This document shows, in pieces, positions 4,239 to 44,818 of a stretch of 64,000 nt of DNA. This DNA is from Candidatus Korobacteraceae bacterium (GTDB lineage Bacteria; Acidobacteriota; Terriglobia; Terriglobales; Acidobacteriaceae), in assembly GCA_049519595.1 (NCBI GenBank), contig JBEKQP010000001.1, forward strand, positions 3,399 through 67,398. The letters run 5' to 3'. The notes under the pieces were generated by a model that had not been told where the DNA came from, did no database searches, and saw only the letters and a program-made list of their open reading frames with translations. The position numbers were made by a program, and so were the translations under genes. Within the stretch, counting starts at the first letter, position 1. Every line of letters begins with the position of its first letter.

Positions 4239-6338
4239 ATGGCATTCATGAAGAGCAAGTATCAGCATAGCCGCGCTTGTGGCTCAAGGATGGCGCGTGC
4301 AACGGAGTGGGCTTGCCGCTACCGCGCAGTGACGCGTGCGGTTGTCATGGCGGCAATTCTTCTGGCGCTCGGTGTGAGTCTGCCGGTTGGCCGCGCCCAG
4401 GCCGCCGAAGCCTCGGGCCAAAACGATCTCTGCTTCGGCTGCCACAGTGATAAGAGCATGAGCACCAAGCGGGCCGGCCGGACGGTCTCGCTTTTTGTGG
4501 ATGGGAAGAAGTTTTCCGCTTCGGTGCACGGCAGCCTGGCTTGCACCAACTGCCATGCCGATCTCGAAGGCGCCGATATTCCACACTCCACGCCCAAAAA
4601 GGTGCAGTGTGGCACCTGCCATGCAGAGCAGCAGGGACTGCTTGCCAAGTCGCTGCACGGCAAAGCCGCTGCGCGCGGCGATGCGCTGGCTCCACGCTGC
4701 GTCAGTTGCCACGGCAATCATGACATCCTGCCGGTAAAGGACAAGAATTCGGCTGTGGCGCCGATGAAGGTGCCATTCGTCTGCGGAAGCTGTCATCGCG
4801 AGGGCACGCCGGTTCAGACGCAACGTCACATTGATCAGCACAACATCATCGAGAATTACACCGAAAGCATCCACGGCGAAGGATTGCTGAAGAAGGGTTT
4901 GATCGTCGCGGCCAACTGTGCTTCGTGTCACACCGCGCACTCGATTCTGCCGCACACCGATCCCAACTCCTCCATCGCCCGGCGTAACATCGCGGCGACC
5001 TGTACCAAGTGCCATGCCGAGATCGAAGCGGTACACCGCAAGACCATCCGCGGCGAACTGTGGGAAAAGGAAGCGAACGTTCTGCCCGCCTGCGTGGACT
5101 GCCACCAACCGCACAAAGTGCGAAATATCTTCTACAGCCAGGGCATGGCCGATGCCGATTGCATGCGTTGCCACAACAACCAGGCTTTGAAGTCGGCGGA
5201 TGGCCGCTCCATGTTCGTCAAGGCGGCGGAGCTCTCCGGTTCGCGTCATGTCAAGGTCGCTTGCAGCCAGTGCCACTCGGAGGTAAACGCCTCGAAGGTT
5301 CGTCCCTGCGAGACCATTACCAAGCCGGTGGATTGCAGCAAATGTCACGAAGCCGTGGGGCAACAATACCAGCGGAGCACTCACGGGCAACTATTTGCGA
5401 AGCAGGACCGTAATGCTCCGACCTGTCGGGAGTGCCATGGCACGCACGGCATTCTTGGCAAGCAGGATTCGCAGTCGGCGACATTTCCGCCTAATGTTCC
5501 AAATCTTTGTGCACGGTGCCATCGCGAAGGCCAGCGCGCCGCCGTGCGCTACACCGGCACGCAGCATGACATCACCACGCACTACAGCGAAAGCATTCAC
5601 GGCAAGGGTCTGCTGAAGAGCGGCCTGACCGTGACTGCCACTTGCTCCAGTTGCCACACCGCGCACGGCGAATTGCCGGCCAGCGATCCCGAGTCGACGG
5701 TCAATAGTAAGAATCTTCCGGCAACCTGCGGCAAGTGCCATCACGGCATCGAAGAGCAGTTTGTGCAGAGCGTTCACTCCGCGACGGTCACCAAGACCGA
5801 CAAGCCATTGCCGGTTTGCAGCGATTGCCATACCGCACACTCCATTCGTCGAGCCGATGAAGATGGGTTCAAGCTCGAAATCATGGACAGGTGCGGCAAG
5901 TGCCATGCCGAAATTGCCAAAACCTACTTCGATACCTATCACGGAAAGGTATCGCGGCTCGGCTACACCAAGACCGCCAAGTGTTACGACTGCCACGGCG
6001 CCCACGATATCCAGAAGGTGACGGACCCGAGGTCGCACCTGAGCCGTGCCAACGTAGTCGCCACTTGCCAGAAGTGCCACGTCGCCGCCACACGTCGCTT
6101 TGCCGGATATTTGACGCACGCAACGCATCACGACCCTAAAAAGTATCCCTTCTTGTTCTGGGTGTTCTGGGGCATGACGTCGCTGCTGGTTGGAACCTTT
6201 ATCGTCGGTGGCGTGCATACGCTGTTGTGGCTGCCACGTGCCTTCGAGATGCGCCGCGAGTTGCTCGCGGAGGAAGCTGCGCTCGAAGACAAGCCGGAAA
6301 GTCCCGCCGCGGAGGATAAGCAGAATGGTGACAAGTAG
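4239..6338 (+). CDS. multihaem cytochrome c, 19 CXXCH motifs, with a C-terminal membrane anchor
   Basis: 19 CXXCH counted, from CFGCH to CQKCH. Signal-like N-terminus (AVVMAAILLALGVSLPVGRAQA) and a single C-terminal TM (YPFLFWVFWGMTSLLVGTFIVGGV). Alternative starts are ATG 4248 and 4290. Confidence 0.9.
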   Translation: MAFMKSKYQHSRACGSRMARATEWACRYRAVTRAVVMAAILLALGVSLPVGRAQAAEASGQNDLCFGCHSDKSMSTKRAGRTVSLFVDGKKFSASVHGSLACTNCHADLEGADIPHSTPKKVQCGTCHAEQQGLLAKSLHGKAAARGDALAPRCVSCHGNHDILPVKDKNSAVAPMKVPFVCGSCHREGTPVQTQRHIDQHNIIENYTESIHGEGLLKKGLIVAANCASCHTAHSILPHTDPNSSIARRNIAATCTKCHAEIEAVHRKTIRGELWEKEANVLPACVDCHQPHKVRNIFYSQGMADADCMRCHNNQALKSADGRSMFVKAAELSGSRHVKVACSQCHSEVNASKVRPCETITKPVDCSKCHEAVGQQYQRSTHGQLFAKQDRNAPTCRECHGTHGILGKQDSQSATFPPNVPNLCARCHREGQRAAVRYTGTQHDITTHYSESIHGKGLLKSGLTVTATCSSCHTAHGELPASDPESTVNSKNLPATCGKCHHGIEEQFVQSVHSATVTKTDKPLPVCSDCHTAHSIRRADEDGFKLEIMDRCGKCHAEIAKTYFDTYHGKVSRLGYTKTAKCYDCHGAHDIQKVTDPRSHLSRANVVATCQKCHVAATRRFAGYLTHATHHDPKKYPFLFWVFWGMTSLLVGTFIVGGVHTLLWLPRAFEMRRELLAEEAALEDKPESPAAEDKQNGDK

Positions 6339-18130: not shown

Positions 18131-18194
18131 CTCCGTTGCCGCTCGATGTCCCGCCATGTGGGGTGTACAATCCGGCTGTTGTGCTACCGCCTTT

Positions 18195-18701
18195 ATGAGC
18201 GACCTCTCCAGTTTGCCGCCCGACTTCACGCCGCCGCACGCAACTGAACCAACGCCGCCTCCCGTGCTTTTGCCGGAGCCTACGCGCGATGAGCGCACGC
18301 TGGGCATGCTGGCTCATGTGCTGCAGATTGTTTCCTGGCTGATCGCTCCGCTCATCATCTTTTTTCTGGTGCGCAAAGATTCTCGTTTTGTGCGCTATCA
18401 CGCGCTGCAGGCGGTGTTTTTCCAGTTGCTGGTGATGCTGGTCTGGGGCGCAACCTTGCTGGCTCTTTTCGCCGGATTCTTTGCCGCCCTCGCGCACCAC
18501 AGAGGAGCCGTTGGGCCGGCTGCCATCGCTTTCCCCATTCTTTTTTTTGTGATCTTCTGGGGCGGCGGCGCCCTCACTTGGTTCCTGAACCTGGTGCTCG
18601 GCATTGTCTATGGCTTGCGGGCAAACAATGGCGAGTGGGCAGGCTATCCCGGCATCAAGTATCTGGCGGCGAAGGTCGCCGGCGTGGAACTGCCTCACTA
18701 A
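18195..18701 (+). CDS. DUF4870-like small membrane protein
   Basis: ERTLGMLAHVLQIVSWLIAPLIIFFLVRKDSRFVRYHALQAVFFQL. Start taken as ATG 18195 (the ORF opens at 18156). Confidence 0.7.
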   Translation: MSDLSSLPPDFTPPHATEPTPPPVLLPEPTRDERTLGMLAHVLQIVSWLIAPLIIFFLVRKDSRFVRYHALQAVFFQLLVMLVWGATLLALFAGFFAALAHHRGAVGPAAIAFPILFFVIFWGGGALTWFLNLVLGIVYGLRANNGEWAGYPGIKYLAAKVAGVELPH

Positions 18702-39317: not shown

Positions 39318-40193
39318 GTGTCCCTCTCTCGTAACATAGGAACTACGCTGGAAATGATCAAGTGGGAGCACTCCGTGCTGACGCTTCCGTTTGGCCTTAC
39401 CGGCGCGGTGCTGGCGGCGCGCGGCCTTCCCAGCGTGCGACAGGCGGTCTGGCTGGTGGTGGCGCTGGTCTCCGCCCGGTCAGCGGCCATGGCCTTCAAC
39501 CGCCTGGCAGACGCGGCCATCGATGCCGAAAACCCGCGAACAGCATCGCGCGCCATTCCCGCCGGACTTCTCTCGCGGCAATTCGTCTTCTGGTTTGTCG
39601 TGGTGTTCTCGCTGATCCTGATTTTCGCAGCGAGGATGCTGAGCCAGCTTGCATTCTATCTCTCGCCCGTGGCGCTGGTCATCCTCTTCGGCTACTCATA
39701 CACCAAACGCTTCACGCGCTGGGCGCATGTGTTCCTGGGTCTGGCCATGGGGATCGCCCCAGCCGCCGCGTGGGTGGCGATCCGGGGCACGCTGGACCCG
39801 AAAATCTTCATCGTGACCGGCGCGGTCATGTTCTGGGGGGGCGGCTTCGATATTTTGTATAGCTGCCAGGACTACGAGCATGATTGCCGCGCCGGATTGT
39901 ACTCCGTCCCCCGGGCCTTTGGCATCGCGAGGGCGCTGGTGCTGGCGCGCATCTTCCACGTCGTCGCCTTTGGACTGTTTCTGTGGATGGTGTTCGCGTT
40001 TGCGCTAGGTCCGGTGGCACTGGTGGGAGTGCTGCTGGTGGGAGCGCTGCTGATTTATGAGCACTCGCTGGTGCGGGCGAACGACCTGAGCAGACTCAAC
40101 GCGGCGTTTTTCACCACCAACGGCTTTATTTCCATGCTGCTGCTGGGCTTTATTGCCGCCGATCTGCTGATCCGGCACGGCTCCAGCCTTTAG
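39318..40193 (+). CDS. UbiA-family aromatic prenyltransferase (likely menaquinone/futalosine-pathway prenyltransferase)
   Basis: NRLADAAIDAENPRT (NxxxDxxxD motif), a polytopic membrane profile, and adjacency to an Mqn-type radical SAM gene. Confidence 0.85.
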   Translation: MSLSRNIGTTLEMIKWEHSVLTLPFGLTGAVLAARGLPSVRQAVWLVVALVSARSAAMAFNRLADAAIDAENPRTASRAIPAGLLSRQFVFWFVVVFSLILIFAARMLSQLAFYLSPVALVILFGYSYTKRFTRWAHVFLGLAMGIAPAAAWVAIRGTLDPKIFIVTGAVMFWGGGFDILYSCQDYEHDCRAGLYSVPRAFGIARALVLARIFHVVAFGLFLWMVFAFALGPVALVGVLLVGALLIYEHSLVRANDLSRLNAAFFTTNGFISMLLLGFIAADLLIRHGSSL

Positions 40194-40224
40194 AAATGGT
40201 TCTTTGTGCGTTATCATCGAAAAG

Positions 40225-41367
40225 ATGTTTGGCTCGGAGAATAAACACCGCCCATTTCAAACAGACGATCCCAGGCTGCTGCCAATCGCCGACAAGGTGG
40301 CGCGGCAGGAACGTCTGACGTCTGAAGATGGCCTCGCCCTCTACCAGACGAGCGATATCCTCGCTGTCGGCTGGCTGGCTAACCAGGTGCGCGAACGCAT
40401 GCATGGCGATGTCGCGTACTTCAATGTCAACCGTCACATCAACCCAACCAACGTCTGCGTAGCGGCTTGCCGGCTGTGTGCCTTTGGCCGCAGAAAAGAC
40501 GTCCCCGGGGCCTACACAATGGCTTTGGAGGAGGCTTGGCGCGCGGCGGCTTCGGGCTACACGGAAGCGGTGACGGAGTTTCACATCGTCGGTGGCCTGC
40601 ACCCTGACTTGCCGCTAGAATATTTCTTAGATCTGTTTCGCGGTCTCAGGGAGCGGTTTCCGAAGGTGCACCTCAAGGCGTTCACCATGGTGGAGGTTGC
40701 GTTCTTCGCCAAGCGTGCCAAGCTCTCGATACGCGAGACGCTGCTGAAAATGAAAGAGGCAGGCGTGCAATCGATGCCCGGTGGAGGAGCGGAAATCTTC
40801 GCCGAACGGGTGCGCTCAATCATCTGCGACCACAAGATCGATGGAAACGAGTGGCTGGAAACGGCGCGTATCGCTCACGAGGTCGGGCTGAAGTCGAACG
40901 CCACCATGCTCTACGGGCACATCGAGAACGACGAGGACAGGGTGGATCATCTGGTGAAGCTGCGAGCCCTGCAGGACGAGACCCATGGGTTCCAGTGTTT
41001 TATTCCGCTCTCGTTCCATCCCGCCAATACCATGCTCGAACACCTGCCTACCACCACCGGCATGCAGGACATCAAGCAAATAGCGGTCTCGCGGTTGGTG
41101 CTGGACAACTTCCCGCACATCAAGTCCTACTGGCAAATGATGACTCCTAAGGTGGCACAGATTTCGCTGTGCTTTGGAGCTGACGATATCGATGGCACGG
41201 TGGTGGAAGAAAAGATCTACCACGACGCGGGAGCGACGACGCCCCAGGGTCTTCGCCGCCATGACTTGATCAGGTTGATCAAGGAAGCTGGGCGGGAGCC
41301 GTTGGAGCGAGACACGCTGTATCGGCGGGTGACTCGGGACGAAACTTCGTTCACGGTTGCCGTCTAG
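40225..41367 (+). CDS. futalosine-pathway radical SAM enzyme (MqnE/MqnC family; MqnE-like by eye)
   Basis: NVNRHINPTNVCVAACRLCAF (CxxxCxxC), HIVGGLHPD, and GGGAEIF. The ORF opens at TTG 40204. Confidence 0.8.
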   Translation: MFGSENKHRPFQTDDPRLLPIADKVARQERLTSEDGLALYQTSDILAVGWLANQVRERMHGDVAYFNVNRHINPTNVCVAACRLCAFGRRKDVPGAYTMALEEAWRAAASGYTEAVTEFHIVGGLHPDLPLEYFLDLFRGLRERFPKVHLKAFTMVEVAFFAKRAKLSIRETLLKMKEAGVQSMPGGGAEIFAERVRSIICDHKIDGNEWLETARIAHEVGLKSNATMLYGHIENDEDRVDHLVKLRALQDETHGFQCFIPLSFHPANTMLEHLPTTTGMQDIKQIAVSRLVLDNFPHIKSYWQMMTPKVAQISLCFGADDIDGTVVEEKIYHDAGATTPQGLRRHDLIRLIKEAGREPLERDTLYRRVTRDETSFTVAV

Positions 41368-41766
41368 GCGGGCTGCGGAAGGTAGTCTGTAGGGCCCAAC
41401 TCGAAGCTTCGCCATATCCGCTTCGCCTGCAGCTCCGCAAATATAGCCGCCAGCGAGAATGCATGCTCCCCACTCCGCAGGGGCTCTTTTGTGCCCTGGA
41501 AACGTTCCTAGGGGCGCGCTGATGGGGCGGTGGAGTAACGGGCCCTAGTTCGATCATACTTTCACCCCGAATGCTTGCAATTCTGATTGGCATTGCCGTC
41601 CGCAGGTCAGATTCCTGAGTGGCAGGCCCCGTGCAAGTCCGCGCCTGTTAGAGGGTTTCATTCATTGGTGAAGCAACTGTCTTTTGTCTGCACGCTTCAG
41701 TAACAGCAGGTGTACAATTCCCGGACACAGGGACTTTGGGAGCCACTCCTGTAACGGAGCCCATGA

Positions 41767-42813
41767 ATGAACGTCCATTTCACGTACAAACTTTCAAAAA
41801 CTGCCGATCTCGAAAATCTGATCACACAACGAATTGAAAAACTACAAAAGCGCCTTCAGGTGTTTCGGCCCGACATGATTTCGCTGTATGGTTCGGTCGA
41901 TGAGCATCCGAAGATGGGCTTCAACGTAGCGCTGAATCTGCGCTTGCCGTCCGGGCAACTGGCTGCGCGCGAAGTCGGCGACACGGCACCGAGCGCGATT
42001 AAGAGTTGCTTTGAGAGCCTGAAGGAGCAACTCGCGAAGCACATGGATCACCTGCGGGCCGCGTACAAGTGGCCACGCAGAAGGCGCCCGGCGGGACGTA
42101 CCCGCGCGGAAACGCAGGTGCCCTTCGAAGAGACACTTGCGTCCGTGCAGGCCGACGTCGTTTCCGCCCAGGATGTTAATGGCTGGCTGAATGCGAATCT
42201 CGACAAATTGCAGCGATTCGTCGAGCGGGAACTTCGCTACCGCAGCAACAGCGGGCAGCTGCGTGCGCAACAGATAACACCAGAGGAGGTAATCAGCGAG
42301 GCCATCGCGAACGCGCTGGACGGCCGCACGGAAAAACCCGAGAAATTTACGCTGGAGCCCTGGCTGTACTTTCTTTCACGGGCCGCCATCGATCGTCTGG
42401 CGGAGCAAGCTCGCGGCGCAGAGGGTGAAGTCGGATTGGACTCTAGCGTGCGGGCAGAGGAGGCCACCGGAAGCGACGAGGCCATGCTCCAGTTCCATCA
42501 TCCCGACGAAATGCTTACCAACGAGAATGTCATTCCCGATGGTGCAACCGCGACGCCGGAGGAGATCGCCGCTAGCGACGAAGTGATGGGAATGATCGAG
42601 ACGGTTTTGCGCAACGCGCATCACGAAGACCGGGAGGCTTTCATCCTGTTCACGATGGAAGGGTTCACCGTGCAGGAAATAGCCGTGATTACCGAGCGCA
42701 AGCCGGAAGAGGTCCGAACGTCGATTGCAAAAGCACGCGAACAACTGCGGAAAGCACTGCCGGTTGCCGAGCAGTTGAGGAACAAGCTGATCGAGCATTC
42801 CAAATCCGCCTAA
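41767..42813 (+). CDS. fusion protein: N-terminal RaiA/HPF (S30AE) ribosome-hibernation-factor domain plus C-terminal ECF-like sigma-70 regions 2 and 4
   Basis: The N-terminal 100 or so aa are colinear with HPF/YfiA (MNVHFTYK...ITQRIEKLQKRL...AIKSCFESLKEQLAKHMDHL). A basic linker KWPRRRRPAGRTR follows. Then come the region-2-like EEVISEAIANAL...PWLYFLSRAAIDRL and the region-4-like DREAFILFTMEGFTVQEIAVITERKPEEVRTSIAKAREQLRKAL. Confidence 0.8.
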   Translation: MNVHFTYKLSKTADLENLITQRIEKLQKRLQVFRPDMISLYGSVDEHPKMGFNVALNLRLPSGQLAAREVGDTAPSAIKSCFESLKEQLAKHMDHLRAAYKWPRRRRPAGRTRAETQVPFEETLASVQADVVSAQDVNGWLNANLDKLQRFVERELRYRSNSGQLRAQQITPEEVISEAIANALDGRTEKPEKFTLEPWLYFLSRAAIDRLAEQARGAEGEVGLDSSVRAEEATGSDEAMLQFHHPDEMLTNENVIPDGATATPEEIAASDEVMGMIETVLRNAHHEDREAFILFTMEGFTVQEIAVITERKPEEVRTSIAKAREQLRKALPVAEQLRNKLIEHSKSA

Positions 42814-42853
42814 ACAACCAGAACGAGTCCAAGAGTATTGAGGAGAGGTGTCG

Positions 42854-44014
42854 ATGATTACGCGAAGAGAAATCCGCGCTCTGGCCGAATTTCAATCGGC
42901 CCGAGGATGTGCAGTCACGTTTTACTATCAGCCCGACACACCGGCGAACCAGTCTCATCGGGAGGAAGCAATCCTGGTGAAGGATTTGGGGCGTGCGGCG
43001 CTTCGCGAAGCCGAGAAAGAGGGTCGCAACGATTATGCGCGCGCCGACCTGAGCCGAATTCTCGAGCTGGCGGAGCGTCTCCACGGGAATGCCGGGAAGG
43101 CGAAGGCGGTCTTTGCCGACTCGTCACAGAACGTCTGGCGTGAGTTTGACATTCCGGCATGGCTGGACAAGACGCGGGTGTTGATCGATCGTCGGTTTCA
43201 TCTCAGACCGCTGGCGCCGCTGCTGGAGGTGAATCCGCGGGTATGCGTTTGCGTCGTGGATCGCAGCAAAGCGCGACTTTTCGACTACCAGAATGAAATC
43301 TGCAAGGAGGTTATCGGATTTTTCACCGAGTCGCCGCGAGTGGGCGAGAGCACGGGAGGGGGAGGCTACGATGCCGGACACATCTCCCGGCGCGTTTCCG
43401 AATTTGCCAAGCAGCACTATAAAAAGGTGGCGGATACGATTCTGAAATTCTTTGAACGCGGCAGTTGCGAGAGTCTGGCGGTGGGAATCCGCGACGAGAA
43501 TTGGCTCGAATTCGAATCTGTGCTGCACCCTTACCTCAAAAAGAATCTGGTCGGCCGCTTCCATGCCGATCCCGATACAGCGACTCCTCAGCAACTGAAA
43601 GGAAAGCTCGAACGGCTGCTGGATGAGTACGAACTGAATCGGCACCGAGGGCTCGTCCGCGAGGTGCTGGGGGAAGCGCAGCGGAAGGCTCGCGGGGCAG
43701 TCGGCTTGCGGCGCGTGCTGCGCTCGCTGGAAACCGGAGAGATTCAGACACTGCTGCTGGGAGAGCACTTTCAGGCCCCTGGCGTCGAGTGCCGCCATTG
43801 TGGGCATGTAGACCTGAAAGTCTATCCCAACTGCGCAATCTGCTCGCATCCTGTCGCTGCCGTAGAGGATATCAGCGACGCGATCCTGGGAGCGGCACTG
43901 CGTGGCGGCATAGAGGTGGTCTACGTGAGAGACGATTCCGAATTGGAAGCGGCAGGAAATATCGCCGCGCTGCTACGCTTCCGGGCGGACCAACGGAGAG
44001 CGGTTGCCTCATAG
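42854..44014 (+). CDS. bacterial eRF1/Pelota-fold (archaeo-eukaryotic release-factor-like) protein with a Zn-ribbon insert
   Basis: Central domain VCVCVVDRSKARLF...ESTGGGGYDAGHISRRV. C-domain GAVGLRRVLRSLETGEIQTLLL...IEVVYVRDDSE...GNIAALLRF. CRHC-x10-CAIC is inserted in the C-domain. ATG 42854 follows GGAG (the ORF opens at GTG 42848). Confidence 0.8.
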   Translation: MITRREIRALAEFQSARGCAVTFYYQPDTPANQSHREEAILVKDLGRAALREAEKEGRNDYARADLSRILELAERLHGNAGKAKAVFADSSQNVWREFDIPAWLDKTRVLIDRRFHLRPLAPLLEVNPRVCVCVVDRSKARLFDYQNEICKEVIGFFTESPRVGESTGGGGYDAGHISRRVSEFAKQHYKKVADTILKFFERGSCESLAVGIRDENWLEFESVLHPYLKKNLVGRFHADPDTATPQQLKGKLERLLDEYELNRHRGLVREVLGEAQRKARGAVGLRRVLRSLETGEIQTLLLGEHFQAPGVECRHCGHVDLKVYPNCAICSHPVAAVEDISDAILGAALRGGIEVVYVRDDSELEAAGNIAALLRFRADQRRAVAS

Positions 44015-44045
44015 ACTTGTAGGGTGCGAAACATGGGCGTGGCCT

Positions 44046-44083
44046 TTTGGCTGCGCCTTTTTTGTTGTTTTTTACGGTTGCGC
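44046..44083 (+). terminator. strong rho-independent terminator after the eRF1-like gene
   Basis: ggcgtggcc-tttt-ggctgcgcc forms a 9-bp stem with two G-U pairs, followed by ttttttgttgtttttt. Confidence 0.8.
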
Positions 44084-44140
44084 TACGATACGTTGGGTCG
44101 GTTAGCAACCTATGAGCAGCGTTGGGTCGGAGGCTGATCC

Positions 44141-44818
44141 ATGTCATTGCCGCAAGCATCACAGATACACTCCTTTTTCTCTTCCTTTGGCACTTTTTCG
44201 GTTGTGGCATTGAGTTCGGTGTTCTTTCTCGTCGATCCATTCGCCGCCATCCCGGCATTCCTGGCGATGACCGCGAACCATGAAGCTACGGTCAGACGCC
44301 GAATGGCGAAGCGCGCTGCCTGGACGTGTTTCGGAGTGCTGTCGGTGTTTGCATTGTCGGGCGGGATGATCTTCCGCATGTTTGGCATCACGCTGGCAGC
44401 TTTTGAAATCGCAGGTGGGTTGATTCTGTTGTTGATAGGGCTTGAGATGATTCAGGCGCGTCGCTCCGCCACCCAGGAACACACCAGTGAAACCCTGGAA
44501 GGAGCCATGAAGGAAGACATAGGAATTACACCGCTCGGCGTGCCGATGTTGGCCGGGCCGGGGGCAATTTCAACCGTGATGGTGCTGACCGGAGCTTCTC
44601 CGCGTTGGCTTCACATCTCGGTGGTGTGGTTGGCCATCGTGGTGACGTCCTTCGCCTCTTACGTGATCCTGGCGGGTGCGGACCGCATTCGCCGACGGCT
44701 TGGCGAAACGGGAATCCGCATCATGATGCGCATGATGGGCTTGCTGCTGACCGCCATCGCAGTCCAGTTCGTGATCAACGGGTTGGTTTTGATTGGCGTG
44801 ATTCAGGGTGGTGGGTAA
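44141..44818 (+). CDS. MarC-family (UPF0056) membrane protein
   Basis: FFLVDPFAAIPAFLAMT...FGITLAAFEIAGGLILLLIGLEMI. Confidence 0.85.
   Translation: MSLPQASQIHSFFSSFGTFSVVALSSVFFLVDPFAAIPAFLAMTANHEATVRRRMAKRAAWTCFGVLSVFALSGGMIFRMFGITLAAFEIAGGLILLLIGLEMIQARRSATQEHTSETLEGAMKEDIGITPLGVPMLAGPGAISTVMVLTGASPRWLHISVVWLAIVVTSFASYVILAGADRIRRRLGETGIRIMMRMMGLLLTAIAVQFVINGLVLIGVIQGGG

Follow-up and report, generated by a model that had tools for sequence, protein, structure and literature searches.

A ribosome hibernation factor domain fused to a sigma-like module and encoded beside a Balon-like gene in Terriglobia

Gene Architecture and Conservation

The subject of this work is a gene found in a stretch of 64,000 nucleotides (the window from here on) from the genome of Candidatus Korobacteraceae bacterium (phylum Acidobacteriota, class Terriglobia; assembly GCA_049519595.1, contig JBEKQP010000001.1), which joins in one protein a ribosome hibernation factor domain of the HPF/RaiA type and a module with the fold of extracytoplasmic function (ECF) sigma factors, and which is followed on the same strand by a gene for a Balon-like protein. 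The coordinates of the genes, protein domains and flanking signals are collected in Table 1. The fusion is encoded by a single open reading frame (ORF) on the forward strand (41767..42813, 348 amino acids), opening with ATG and with a GGAG placed 8 bases 5' of the start. The first-pass annotation, made from the letters of the window alone, had taken this ORF for one fusion gene, with the HPF/YfiA pattern in residues 1 to about 100, a basic linker after it, and a region-2-like segment plus a region-4 helix-turn-helix (HTH) in the C-terminal half, and these assignments are borne out. The N-terminal domain, which that annotation allowed might fail to score as S30AE, matches Ribosomal_S30AE (PF02482) at residues 9–96 with 32.0 bits, above the gathering score of 23.7, and has the matching predicted fold; the basic linker is present and predicted to be disordered (residues 105–117), and the two sigma-like segments are supported by domain scans, AlphaFold2 and Foldseek.

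Table 1. Features of the fusion locus, in window coordinates.
Feature	Position	Strand	Basis and remarks
Promoter-like block	41673..41718	+	GCAAC (41673-41677), 16 nt, GCTTC (41694-41698), 10 nt, GGTGTACAAT (41709-41718)
5' untranslated region (5'UTR) hairpin	41730..41762	+	Ends at or overlaps the Shine-Dalgarno GGAG (41756-41759); weak evidence
HPF/RaiA (S30AE) N-terminal domain, residues 1-100	41767..42066	+	PF02482, AlphaFold2, Foldseek
First linker, residues 101-133	42067..42165	+	Basic run KWPRRRR..GRTR, then QVPFEETLA(A/S)V (residues 117-127, nt 42115-42147)
Divergent sigma2-like helical domain, residues 134-220	42166..42426	+	TIGR02937, Foldseek; helices 134-161, 172-184, 193-219
Acidic sigma2-sigma4 linker, residues 221-268	42427..42570	+	Motif L.F[HY]QPDE.L..E[ND].I.D....PE (residues 241-265, nt 42487-42561)
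Sigma4 HTH domain, residues 269-331	42571..42759	+	REAF.L...EGFT..EIA....R..E.VR.SI..AR..LRK; PF08281, PF22233
Extra C-terminal helix, residues 335-347, and stop codon	42760..42813	+	Seen in both AlphaFold2 models; protein end ...SKSA
baeRF family-10 (aeRF1/Balon-like) protein, 388 residues	42848..44014	+	PF18854; 34 nt downstream of the fusion gene
Intrinsic terminator-like hairpin and T-run	44035..44068	+	10-pair stem (7 G-C), then TTTTTTGTTGT; 21 nt past the baeRF10 stop

Two AlphaFold2 models of the protein were built, one from an alignment of 28 sequences (model 1, mean predicted local distance difference test score, pLDDT, 70.7) and the other from 56 sequences (model 2, mean pLDDT 84.6, predicted template modelling score, pTM, 0.57). 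They agree on the layout, namely an HPF fold, a disordered linker, a sigma2 bundle, an acidic stretch of low confidence, sigma4 and a C-terminal helix. In what follows, counts out of 80 refer to the fetched Terriglobia orthologues and counts out of 56 to the family-wide set of members.

The same architecture is widespread. A word-indexed protein search returned more than 100 full-length relatives of 345–352 residues with 52–94% identity, most of them with the identical Pfam combination. A scan with one genome per species found relatives encoded in at least 512 species, the best 80 all belonging to Acidobacteriota of the class Terriglobia, and an exhaustive representative search gave 372 clusters at E<=1e-10, with full-length members down to 25–30% identity. 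In all 80 fetched orthologues the frame is intact, opens with ATG, and is collinear and of equal length. A sequencing or assembly frameshift joining two neighboring genes, which the first-pass annotation had kept in view, is thus effectively ruled out, since the layout of 345–352 residues is intact in the genomes of at least 512 species and in hundreds of independent metagenome contigs. This is a real and widely conserved fusion of HPF and sigma-like parts in one protein. Its very end also shows a pattern, 59 of the 80 orthologues finishing in alanine (SA, IA or TA) after [HY]-[ST]-[KR], as in the ...SKSA of the window (42802–42810), and this type of end may be a degradation or recognition signal.

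The Hibernation Factor Domain and the Linkers

The N-terminal domain is recognized across the family, with a PF02482 match at E<=0.01 in 50 of the 56 members. Its predicted secondary structure (DSSP: strand 2–7, helix 13–29, strands 39–47, 51–59 and 64–71, helix 74–101), modeled with pLDDT values of 95–98, gives the beta-alpha-beta-beta-beta-alpha order over residues 2–101. Compared with the PDB by Foldseek, it superposes on the HPF/YfiA/RaiA structures 2rql, 4hei and 6h4n_x with template modelling (TM) scores of 0.79–0.87 and root mean square deviations (rmsd) of 1.9–3 Å, and on 8rd8_D, the RaiA bound together with Balon, with TM scores of 0.73–0.79. Helix 2 carries the family signature AF..L..Q..KHK..LR, and K25, L58, R59, L60, H92 and L96 do not vary among the 80 orthologues. 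By homology, and judging from the basic part of the helix-2 signature (Q..KHK..LR), the domain would be expected to bind the decoding region of the 30S subunit.

Within the first linker W102, R104 and R106 are largely conserved and P119, F120, T123 and A125 are invariant or nearly so among the orthologues; its basic part is predicted to be disordered and a short helix appears at residues 120–125 in model 2. Searches with the full-length sequence, the profile and the models brought up the HPF N-domain and ECF-sigma parts alone, with no match to the HPF C-terminal dimerization domain evident. Outside the domains, conservation is highest in the acidic motif between sigma2 and sigma4. It is kept in members with only 23–28% identity and in orf11 (FEFYQHDDTLKLADIF) of the transmissible stress-tolerance locus (tLST; see below) of Escherichia coli, and this retention argues for a partner common to all lineages. 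P246 is conserved at 90% or more in alignment A2, and the acidic stretch is modeled at low confidence.

The Balon-Like Partner and the Gene Neighborhood

The gene directly downstream, which the first-pass annotation had missed, encodes a protein that matches PF18854 with 61.2 bits (cut-off 27.1). A baeRF10 gene occupies this place, on the same strand, in 78 of the 80 loci, one of the two exceptions being a contig that ends inside the fusion gene, and it is likewise found downstream of the fusion in a relative with 37% identity (P0134). The best solved relative of the partner is the mycobacterial Balon Rv2629 (8v9k_z, E 6.5e-4 over residues 119–383). At the position aligned with the GGQ of eRF1 the window protein reads G..GYDAGH (residues 170–178, nt 43355–43381), and in 75 orthologues the loop follows R-R-G-[RK]-S-D-G-[FWY]-[AG]-G-Y-D-A-G-H-x-E-R (residues 164–181, nt 43337–43390), with no glutamine; Y174 is present in 71 of these 75. 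A conserved glutamine is said to be kept in baeRF family 10 (Burroughs & Aravind, PMC6514570), although none is seen here at the GGQ-aligned position. The C-terminal domain of the partner has a conserved zinc ribbon, CxxCGH...CxxCG (residues 315–333).

Genes of the baeRF-1 families have been described as persistently linked to HPF genes in operons (Burroughs & Aravind, PMC6514570), and in Psychrobacter urativorans Balon and RaiA were found on one ribosome, the typical neighbors of Balon genes being RaiA, 'alternative sigma70 factors' and MarC (PMC10901736). The fusion gene and the gene of the Balon-like A-site factor form a two-gene operon in Terriglobia, with the fusion first and, in the window, a strong terminator-like hairpin at the close, and the conserved Balon-like partner anchors the locus in ribosome hibernation.

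The surroundings of this pair are more variable. A gene for a MarC-family membrane protein (44141–44818) comes next after the terminator and is conserved in the five closest loci only. Upstream (39318–41367) lie genes for a UbiA prenyltransferase and a radical-SAM MqnC/CofH-like protein, probably of the menaquinone/futalosine pathway, which are often upstream in orthologous loci as well. The MqnC-like gene falls within the fetched flanks in 58 of the 80 loci, on either side and in either orientation, and because of this variation we consider it syntenic and not a member of the operon.

The Sigma-Like Half

The evidence for homology with sigma factors is strongest at the C-terminal end. Sigma70_r4_2 (PF08281) matches residues 288–327 with 30.1 bits against a cut-off of 25.7, and 51 of the 56 members have such a match; PhyR_sigma-like (PF22233) covers the same stretch with 31.4 bits (cut-off 27) and is found in 44. 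In a profile search of the PDB the family hits sigma4 of AlgU, SigH and RpoE at E-values of about 1e-6 to 1e-5 and PhyR (9by5) at 1.7e-6, whereas the sigma2 segment contributes only about 1 bit against AlgU and RpoE. Sigma70_r2 (PF04542) gave no match in the window protein at E<=10, and only 2 of the 56 members matched it at E<=0.01. The NCBIfam model of ECF sigma factors (TIGR02937) does align along nearly its whole length (residues 145–331 against model positions 11–165 of 165), with a score of 38.9 bits that is just short of its cut-off of 42.9.

The predicted structure complements these scans. The sigma2-like bundle (residues 134–219) and the sigma4 HTH (residues 264–330) are laid out alike in the AlphaFold2 models, and Foldseek aligned about 200 columns of the C-terminal half to SigH (5zx2_F), SigE (9m9e_F), RpoE (1or7_A and 6jbq_F), AlgU (8z6g_B) and the EcfG-type sigma 5uxx_C. 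The half therefore has a sigma2 plus sigma4 fold without sigma3, as in the ECF (group 4) sigmas. The predicted packing of the two domains is closest to that of the EcfG-type sigma bound to its anti-sigma NepR (5uxx_C, TM 0.61, rmsd 7.7 Å); ECF sigmas bound to RNA polymerase deviate from model 2 by 27–29 Å.

At the level of single residues the picture is mixed. The sigma2-like domain contains an EV.DE helix resembling region 2.2, a loop E[KR]PE..LEPW, highly conserved and sitting where ECF sigmas carry their -10 specificity loop, and a tryptophan (W199) invariant in the 80 orthologues. The core-binding motif D..QE of region 2.2 is replaced by an aligned E/D174-V-x-[D/G/N/S]177-E178: residue 174 is Glu or Asp in 80/80 orthologues, E178 is invariant in the same set and Glu in 39/56 family-wide, and position 177, where ECF sigmas have the region-2.2 glutamine, is Asp in 46 of the 56 members and Gln in none. 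The recognition helix of sigma4 is net basic in the Terriglobia clade, with R317 in 74 and R324 in 71 of the 80 orthologues and with R328/K329 conserved there too; its RAR motif is gone in the proteobacterial and tLST relatives. Positions 318, 321 and 322 correspond in a hidden Markov model (HMM) alignment to S172, F175 and R176 of RpoE, which we take to make the base-specific contacts with the -35 element. These positions are among the most variable of sigma4 (entropies of 2.4–3.0 bits in the 80 orthologues). As an internal control for this variability a real ECF sigma was sought in the window, and family HMMs found no second HPF, sigma4 or ECF gene in the 64 kb. The question raised in the first-pass annotation, whether the -10 and -35 recognition residues of ECF sigmas are retained, thus receives a divided answer, the -10-type loop being conserved and R317 and R324 kept, but the -35 specificity positions being variable.

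No anti-sigma or NepR-like gene was found in the neighborhoods examined (the window, the 80 loci, and the distant and proteobacterial loci). The PhyR family model NF006623 scores only 32 bits against a cut-off of 240, over sigma4 alone, and the receiver domain is absent. Taking sequence and predicted fold together, the sigma-like half is a folded ECF-like unit that yet departs from working sigma factors. Calling it an ECF-type sigma factor, as the first-pass annotation did, holds for sigma4 and for the sigma2–sigma4 fold, and is too strong as a claim of membership, since Sigma70_r2 fails, TIGR02937 stays below its cut-off and the glutamine of region 2.2 is replaced.

Putative Promoter, Leader and Terminator

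Upstream of the fusion gene a block with the family consensus cAAct-N16-cTTGCTTCT-N13-RGGWGTAnAAT is strongly conserved. Among the 80 upstream regions, 76 have G[TA]GTAnAAT at 54–66 nucleotides before the ATG, accompanied at constant distances by a cAAC block and one resembling TTGCTTCT. We infer a promoter function for 41673–41718. By its letters it looks like a TTGCTT/TAnAAT promoter with extra blocks rather than like an AAC/CGT promoter of the ECF type.

The motif appears to be specific to this operon. A count of GGWGTANAAT over 1.04 Mb of loci gave 80 copies in 76 sequences, only three of them with more than one, and nearly all copies are located at the operon promoter, given that 76 of the 80 upstream regions carry the motif near the ATG. 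Neither GGWGTANAAT nor GCAAC-N15-18-GCTTC is enriched elsewhere in the window, and no second target that would define a regulon was found in the window or in about 1 Mb of flanks, a small search space. An extra exact copy of GGTGTACAAT lies at 18162–18171, in an intergenic position some 25 nucleotides short of a potential start codon (ATG at 18196; ORF 18156..18701). A TTGCTT block at the spacing of the family is missing from it, and the three exact matches that the window holds do not significantly exceed the one or so expected. When metagenomes were scanned for TTGCTTCT-N11-15-GGWGTAAAAT, the 80 loci among the matches listed were on unrelated AT-rich contigs, none of them encoding the fusion. 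Beyond the close orthologues, the operon motif is found only at the P0134 locus (L087) and at that of a stand-alone variant described below (L092), and both the upstream regions of remoter members and the proteobacterial islands lack it.

A hairpin occupies the same place of the leader in all eight diverse 5'UTRs that were folded (including those of loci L010, L015, L018, L026, L030, L059 and L067, at about 5955–6000), with modest z-scores of +0.4 to -3.2 in single-sequence folds. The inner stems differ by clade (CGGGU/ACCCG, GGACGG/CCGUCC, GGAUGGG/CCCUCC or GGGAG/CUCC), and RNAalifold on a MAFFT alignment of the 5'UTRs found no consensus structure, because the hairpins were misaligned. The hairpin may sequester the Shine-Dalgarno sequence and in this way control translation. 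No known Rfam RNA family was found in 41000–44500.

Distant Members and Stress Islands

Full-length members with 23–37% identity keep the fusion layout. Some of the distant members have a neighbor of another kind (an SLT/LysM gene or an aminotransferase gene) or no partner at all. In the members P0186 and P0174, with about 30% identity (L084:5584-6969, L085:2414-3799 and L086:6037-8157), a gene for an SLT/LysM lytic transglycosylase begins 13–17 nucleotides downstream; a DSPc phosphatase gene is located near these loci, and L084 and L085 have in addition a HipA-like kinase gene.

Relatives were also detected by tblastn on 34 proteobacterial plasmids, including pOANT01 of Brucella anthropi, pYEE3 of Paracoccus yeei, the megaplasmid of Methylorubrum extorquens AM1, and plasmids of Paraburkholderia and Cupriavidus. 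Three of these island loci were inspected (L089:1-12936, L091:1-12942 and L090:1-12936). In B. anthropi and P. yeei the fusion is part of a cluster resembling heat-resistance islands, in the order Hsp20, MarR, FtsH, ClpK/G-type AAA ATPase, fusion and HdeD, followed by YfdX1/2 or by ClpP-TrxC-KefB, and in Paraburkholderia it has three Hsp20 genes on one side and GroES-GroEL-DnaK on the other. The stop codon of the B. anthropi fusion overlaps the hdeD start by 4 nucleotides. The proteins of B. anthropi and Paraburkholderia both pass the S30AE cut-off, and their region 4 is recognized by Sigma70_r4 in the former and by Sigma70_r4_2 in the latter. The B. anthropi protein aligns with residues 18–331 of the window protein (28% identity, E 4e-26).

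Using the B. anthropi protein in turn as tblastn query, we retrieved 288 plasmids, most of which come from Klebsiella, Enterobacter, Acinetobacter or E. coli. At both loci that were looked at (L096:5001-6143, from E. coli plasmid p1585m1_C, and L095:7001-8146, from an Enterobacter hormaechei plasmid) the match is orf11, a 'hypothetical protein' gene between hdeD-GI and trx-GI of the tLST, also called the heat-resistance locus (LHR). Aligned by hhalign, the family and E. coli orf11 give a probability of 99.8% and an E-value of 6.5e-29 over 333 columns, with about 21% identity to the family profile, and the alignment takes in the HPF-like N-domain, the RELxY...EV.DE helix and the motif F.FYQ.D..L.L.D. 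Pfam detected no domain in E. coli orf11, and at the DNA level the B. anthropi gene had no blastn match in E. coli genomes, so that the link to E. coli rests on tblastn and hhalign. By protein similarity, then, the family extends to proteobacterial stress islands, including orf11 of the tLST. In a delta-orf11 strain lipid oxidation after chlorine was unchanged (PMC8407380; also PMC8290217).

A stand-alone sigma-like variant of 269 residues was also recovered (P0144; L092:209-1018 and L093:210-1019). It retains both sigma2 and sigma4, along with the basic tail, the FHQPDE motif and the promoter block (GGGGTGTAGAAT). The HPF domain is missing, since only 208 nucleotides lie upstream and these hold the end of an MqnC-like gene, and there is no baeRF10 gene downstream, where the gene that follows codes for a product with a twin-arginine-type signal. 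Loss of the HPF domain seems here to have gone hand in hand with loss of the Balon-like gene. Another candidate for a sigma-only member, P0152, was rejected, the hit being cut by the end of its contig.

Proposed Mechanism and Alternatives

Our preferred reading, tentative at a probability of roughly 0.38, is that of a chimeric hibernation factor with a Balon-like partner, in which the sigma-derived module would connect to RNA polymerase but would not serve as a conventional, autonomous sigma. Promoter-like block, 5'UTR hairpin, fusion gene, Balon-like gene and terminator would make up a two-gene operon for dormancy or stress. The N-terminal HPF/RaiA domain would plug the tRNA/mRNA channel of the 30S subunit, and the co-transcribed aeRF1-like protein without GGQ would take the A site of the same ribosome, as RaiA and Balon do in Psychrobacter; it is by this analogy that we propose their co-binding. 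A linker of about 33 residues would then join the HPF domain to the ECF-sigma-derived module, which replaces the dimerization domain of long HPF and would, in our view, still dock on the RNA polymerase core, coupling the state of the ribosome pool and transcription in one polypeptide. The module would then be a tether or a competitor for core RNA polymerase; it would not select promoters autonomously as a sigma does. The acidic motif, E174 and E178 are well conserved and kept even in relatives without a Balon neighbor, a sign of a universal partner, and for a sigma fold this partner would most obviously be RNA polymerase.

Several observations weigh against this reading. The protein retains a complete sigma2–linker–sigma4 unit, which fits a real sigma at least as well, and in Terriglobia the E[KR]PE..LEPW loop, W199, R317, R324 and the net basic recognition helix are conserved. 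The lack of an anti-sigma gene nearby is what would be expected of ECF sigmas with built-in regulation. The compact packing in the model resembles that of a switched-off sigma bound to its anti-sigma, although this is weak evidence. Retention of the sigma-like module in P0144 indicates that it is viable alone, and the pairing with a hibernation partner is specific to one clade, since distant members have no Balon-like neighbor.

Alternatively, and along the lines of an idea in the first-pass annotation, the protein could be a real ECF-type sigma gated by ribosomes, serving a small stress regulon and possibly its own operon, with the HPF domain as built-in anti-sigma tether or sensor and with sigma activity set by the number of vacant decoding sites in the ribosome pool. 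We consider this doubtful, if almost as likely as the chimeric hibernation factor. The full sigma2–linker–sigma4 unit, the ECF homology over residues 145–331, the fold matches to ECF sigmas and the conservation in Terriglobia of the L3-like loop, W199, R317, R324 and R328/K329 all speak for it, as do the absence of an anti-sigma gene nearby, the known regulation of some ECF sigmas by fused extensions (PMC7826278) and an upstream motif that is operon-specific, strongly conserved, provided with a cAAC block and kept by the stand-alone variant. However, the failure of Sigma70_r2, the TIGR02937 score below cut-off and the Asp or Ser in place of the region-2.2 glutamine are not what such a sigma should show, the -35 specificity positions vary among orthologues, and the best-conserved part of the promoter looks like a TAnAAT -10 with a TTGCTT -35 and not the AAC/CGT type of ECF promoters. 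The motif is moreover missing upstream of distant members, no second target was found in the small search space, and orf11 of the tLST has diverged past any Pfam sigma match. The first-pass annotation also offered reuse of region 4 as a nucleic-acid-binding module, which would be compatible with these results.

The module could also serve hibernation alone, substituting for the long-HPF C-terminal domain (as a dimerization unit for 100S-like particles, or through contacts with the 30S platform or with the Balon-like partner) with no link to RNA polymerase or DNA. We know of no ECF sigma domains that dimerize, and such a role makes it hard to explain why the whole unit and the acidic motif are conserved down to 23% identity, including lineages without a Balon neighbor, or why the module survives alone in L092. 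What recommends it is the location of the module just where the long-HPF C-terminal domain would be, after a linker of about 33 residues, the strict coupling to baeRF10 in Terriglobia, and the joint absence of HPF domain and baeRF10 in L092; besides, a preprint of November 2025 (bioRxiv 10.1101/2025.11.04.686544) frames such chimeras as repairs of truncated long HPF. On balance we hold it to be improbable. Far less probable still is a sigma mimic like PhyR, which would titrate an anti-sigma encoded elsewhere without binding RNA polymerase, so that the state of the ribosomes would feed a partner-switching cascade. The higher score of PF22233 (31.4 against 30.1 bits for Sigma70_r4_2, with matches in 44/56 members), the hit to PhyR 9by5 (E 1.7e-6), the sigma2 degenerate as in PhyR and the packing closest to an EcfG-type sigma bound to NepR point that way, but the two Pfam scores hardly differ, the PhyR model reaches 32 bits of the required 240 in sigma4 only, there is no receiver domain, and the neighborhoods examined have no NepR-like or anti-sigma gene.

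A bolder and rather unlikely reading is that the fusion couples both central machines of gene expression in dormancy, so that either the availability of the sigma would be set by vacant decoding sites, or core RNA polymerase would be parked on hibernating ribosomes and both machines thus stored jointly with the Balon-like factor. The acidic F[HY]QPDE..L..ED motif would act as a sigma finger in the RNA polymerase cleft, and the scheme would extend to orf11.

If the sigma-like half still binds RNA polymerase, the protein would be a hard-wired link between ribosome hibernation and transcription, a connection otherwise usually explained via (p)ppGpp or by gene neighborhood only. The ribosome-gated version, if true, would amount to a direct signaling wire from the ribosome to RNA polymerase without a small molecule. 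If, on the other hand, the module is only a structural stand-in for the long-HPF C-terminal domain, this would be an ordinary lineage-specific variant of a hibernation factor. The family is a constant element in a dominant soil-bacterial group (it is encoded in the genomes of at least 512 species, the best 80 loci all being from Terriglobia). In Terriglobia the fusion gene nearly always has a Balon-type factor beside it, and distant homologues occur in islands for heat and stress tolerance in clinical and food-borne Proteobacteria, orf11 of the tLST/LHR among them. The mechanism bears on the dormancy of soil bacteria and on heat and chlorine tolerance, and tractable hosts exist (E. coli with tLST, Brucella (Ochrobactrum) anthropi and Methylorubrum extorquens AM1).

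Comparison With Known Systems

The first-pass annotation knew of no described physical fusion of HPF with a member of the sigma70 family. This has to be corrected, as the architecture is noted in the preprint and in database annotations and is not new. According to the preprint, some 'long HPF' homologues are without the dimerization domain and carry a Csp, SigE or CBS domain in its stead; such chimeras occur alongside canonical HPF, with Balon genes often next to them, and a plasmid-borne 'SigE-HPF fusion' is named. The SigE chimera is covered there by two sentences and a figure, with no experiment on it and no residue-level treatment of its sigma half. JGI and NCBI annotate family members with dual or alternating names. 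Apparently undescribed in the preprint, as far as its text shows, are the Terriglobia-wide operon with baeRF10, the acidic linker motif and the conserved promoter.

The closest relative is thus the chimeric HPF-'SigE' class of the preprint, which, as far as described there, shares with our protein the HPF N-domain without the long-HPF C-terminal domain, the sigma-type module, the frequent place next to a Balon gene and the occurrence on plasmids with stress-tolerance islands. The pair formed by RaiA and Balon (8rd8; PMC10901736) is similar in that an HPF-family protein and an aeRF1-like protein without GGQ are encoded side by side. Unlike the single-domain RaiA, however, the HPF domain here carries a sigma-like extension of 215 residues, and the partner differs from Balon in being of baeRF family 10, with a G..GYDAGH loop, a zinc ribbon and very low identity to Rv2629. 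With long HPF the protein shares the N-domain, a flexible basic linker some 30 residues long and a C-terminal module, which in the 100S-forming long HPF is a dimerization domain and here an ECF-sigma fold.

Among sigma factors, the extended ECFs with C-terminal (ECF41/42) or N-terminal (BldN/ECF121, SigC) additions have the same combination of a sigma2 plus sigma4 core, a fused domain and no neighboring anti-sigma gene (PMC7826278), whereas sigma2 of the fusion fails the Pfam region-2 model and has the glutamine of DxxQE replaced. A ribosome, S30 or hibernation extension is not mentioned in the main text of the ECF classification (PMC7826278), and full-text literature searches on ECF with S30AE were likewise empty. 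The sigma-like domain of PhyR is comparable as an ECF-derived module that kept its fold while functional positions diverged, and PF22233 is above its cut-off; in contrast to PhyR, the anti-anti-sigma of the alphaproteobacterial general stress response, the fusion lacks a receiver domain and any NepR/EcfG context, only its sigma4 matches, and the host is an acidobacterium. Orf11 of the tLST/LHR is a full-length homologue of the family and differs from the fusion in having neither Pfam domains nor a Balon-like neighbor. Finally, the archaeal HPF-CBS chimeras (HibA or AHA), structurally validated as hibernation factors, likewise combine a bacterial-type HPF/RaiA domain with an unrelated regulatory module, in their case a nucleotide-sensing CBS pair instead of a sigma fold.

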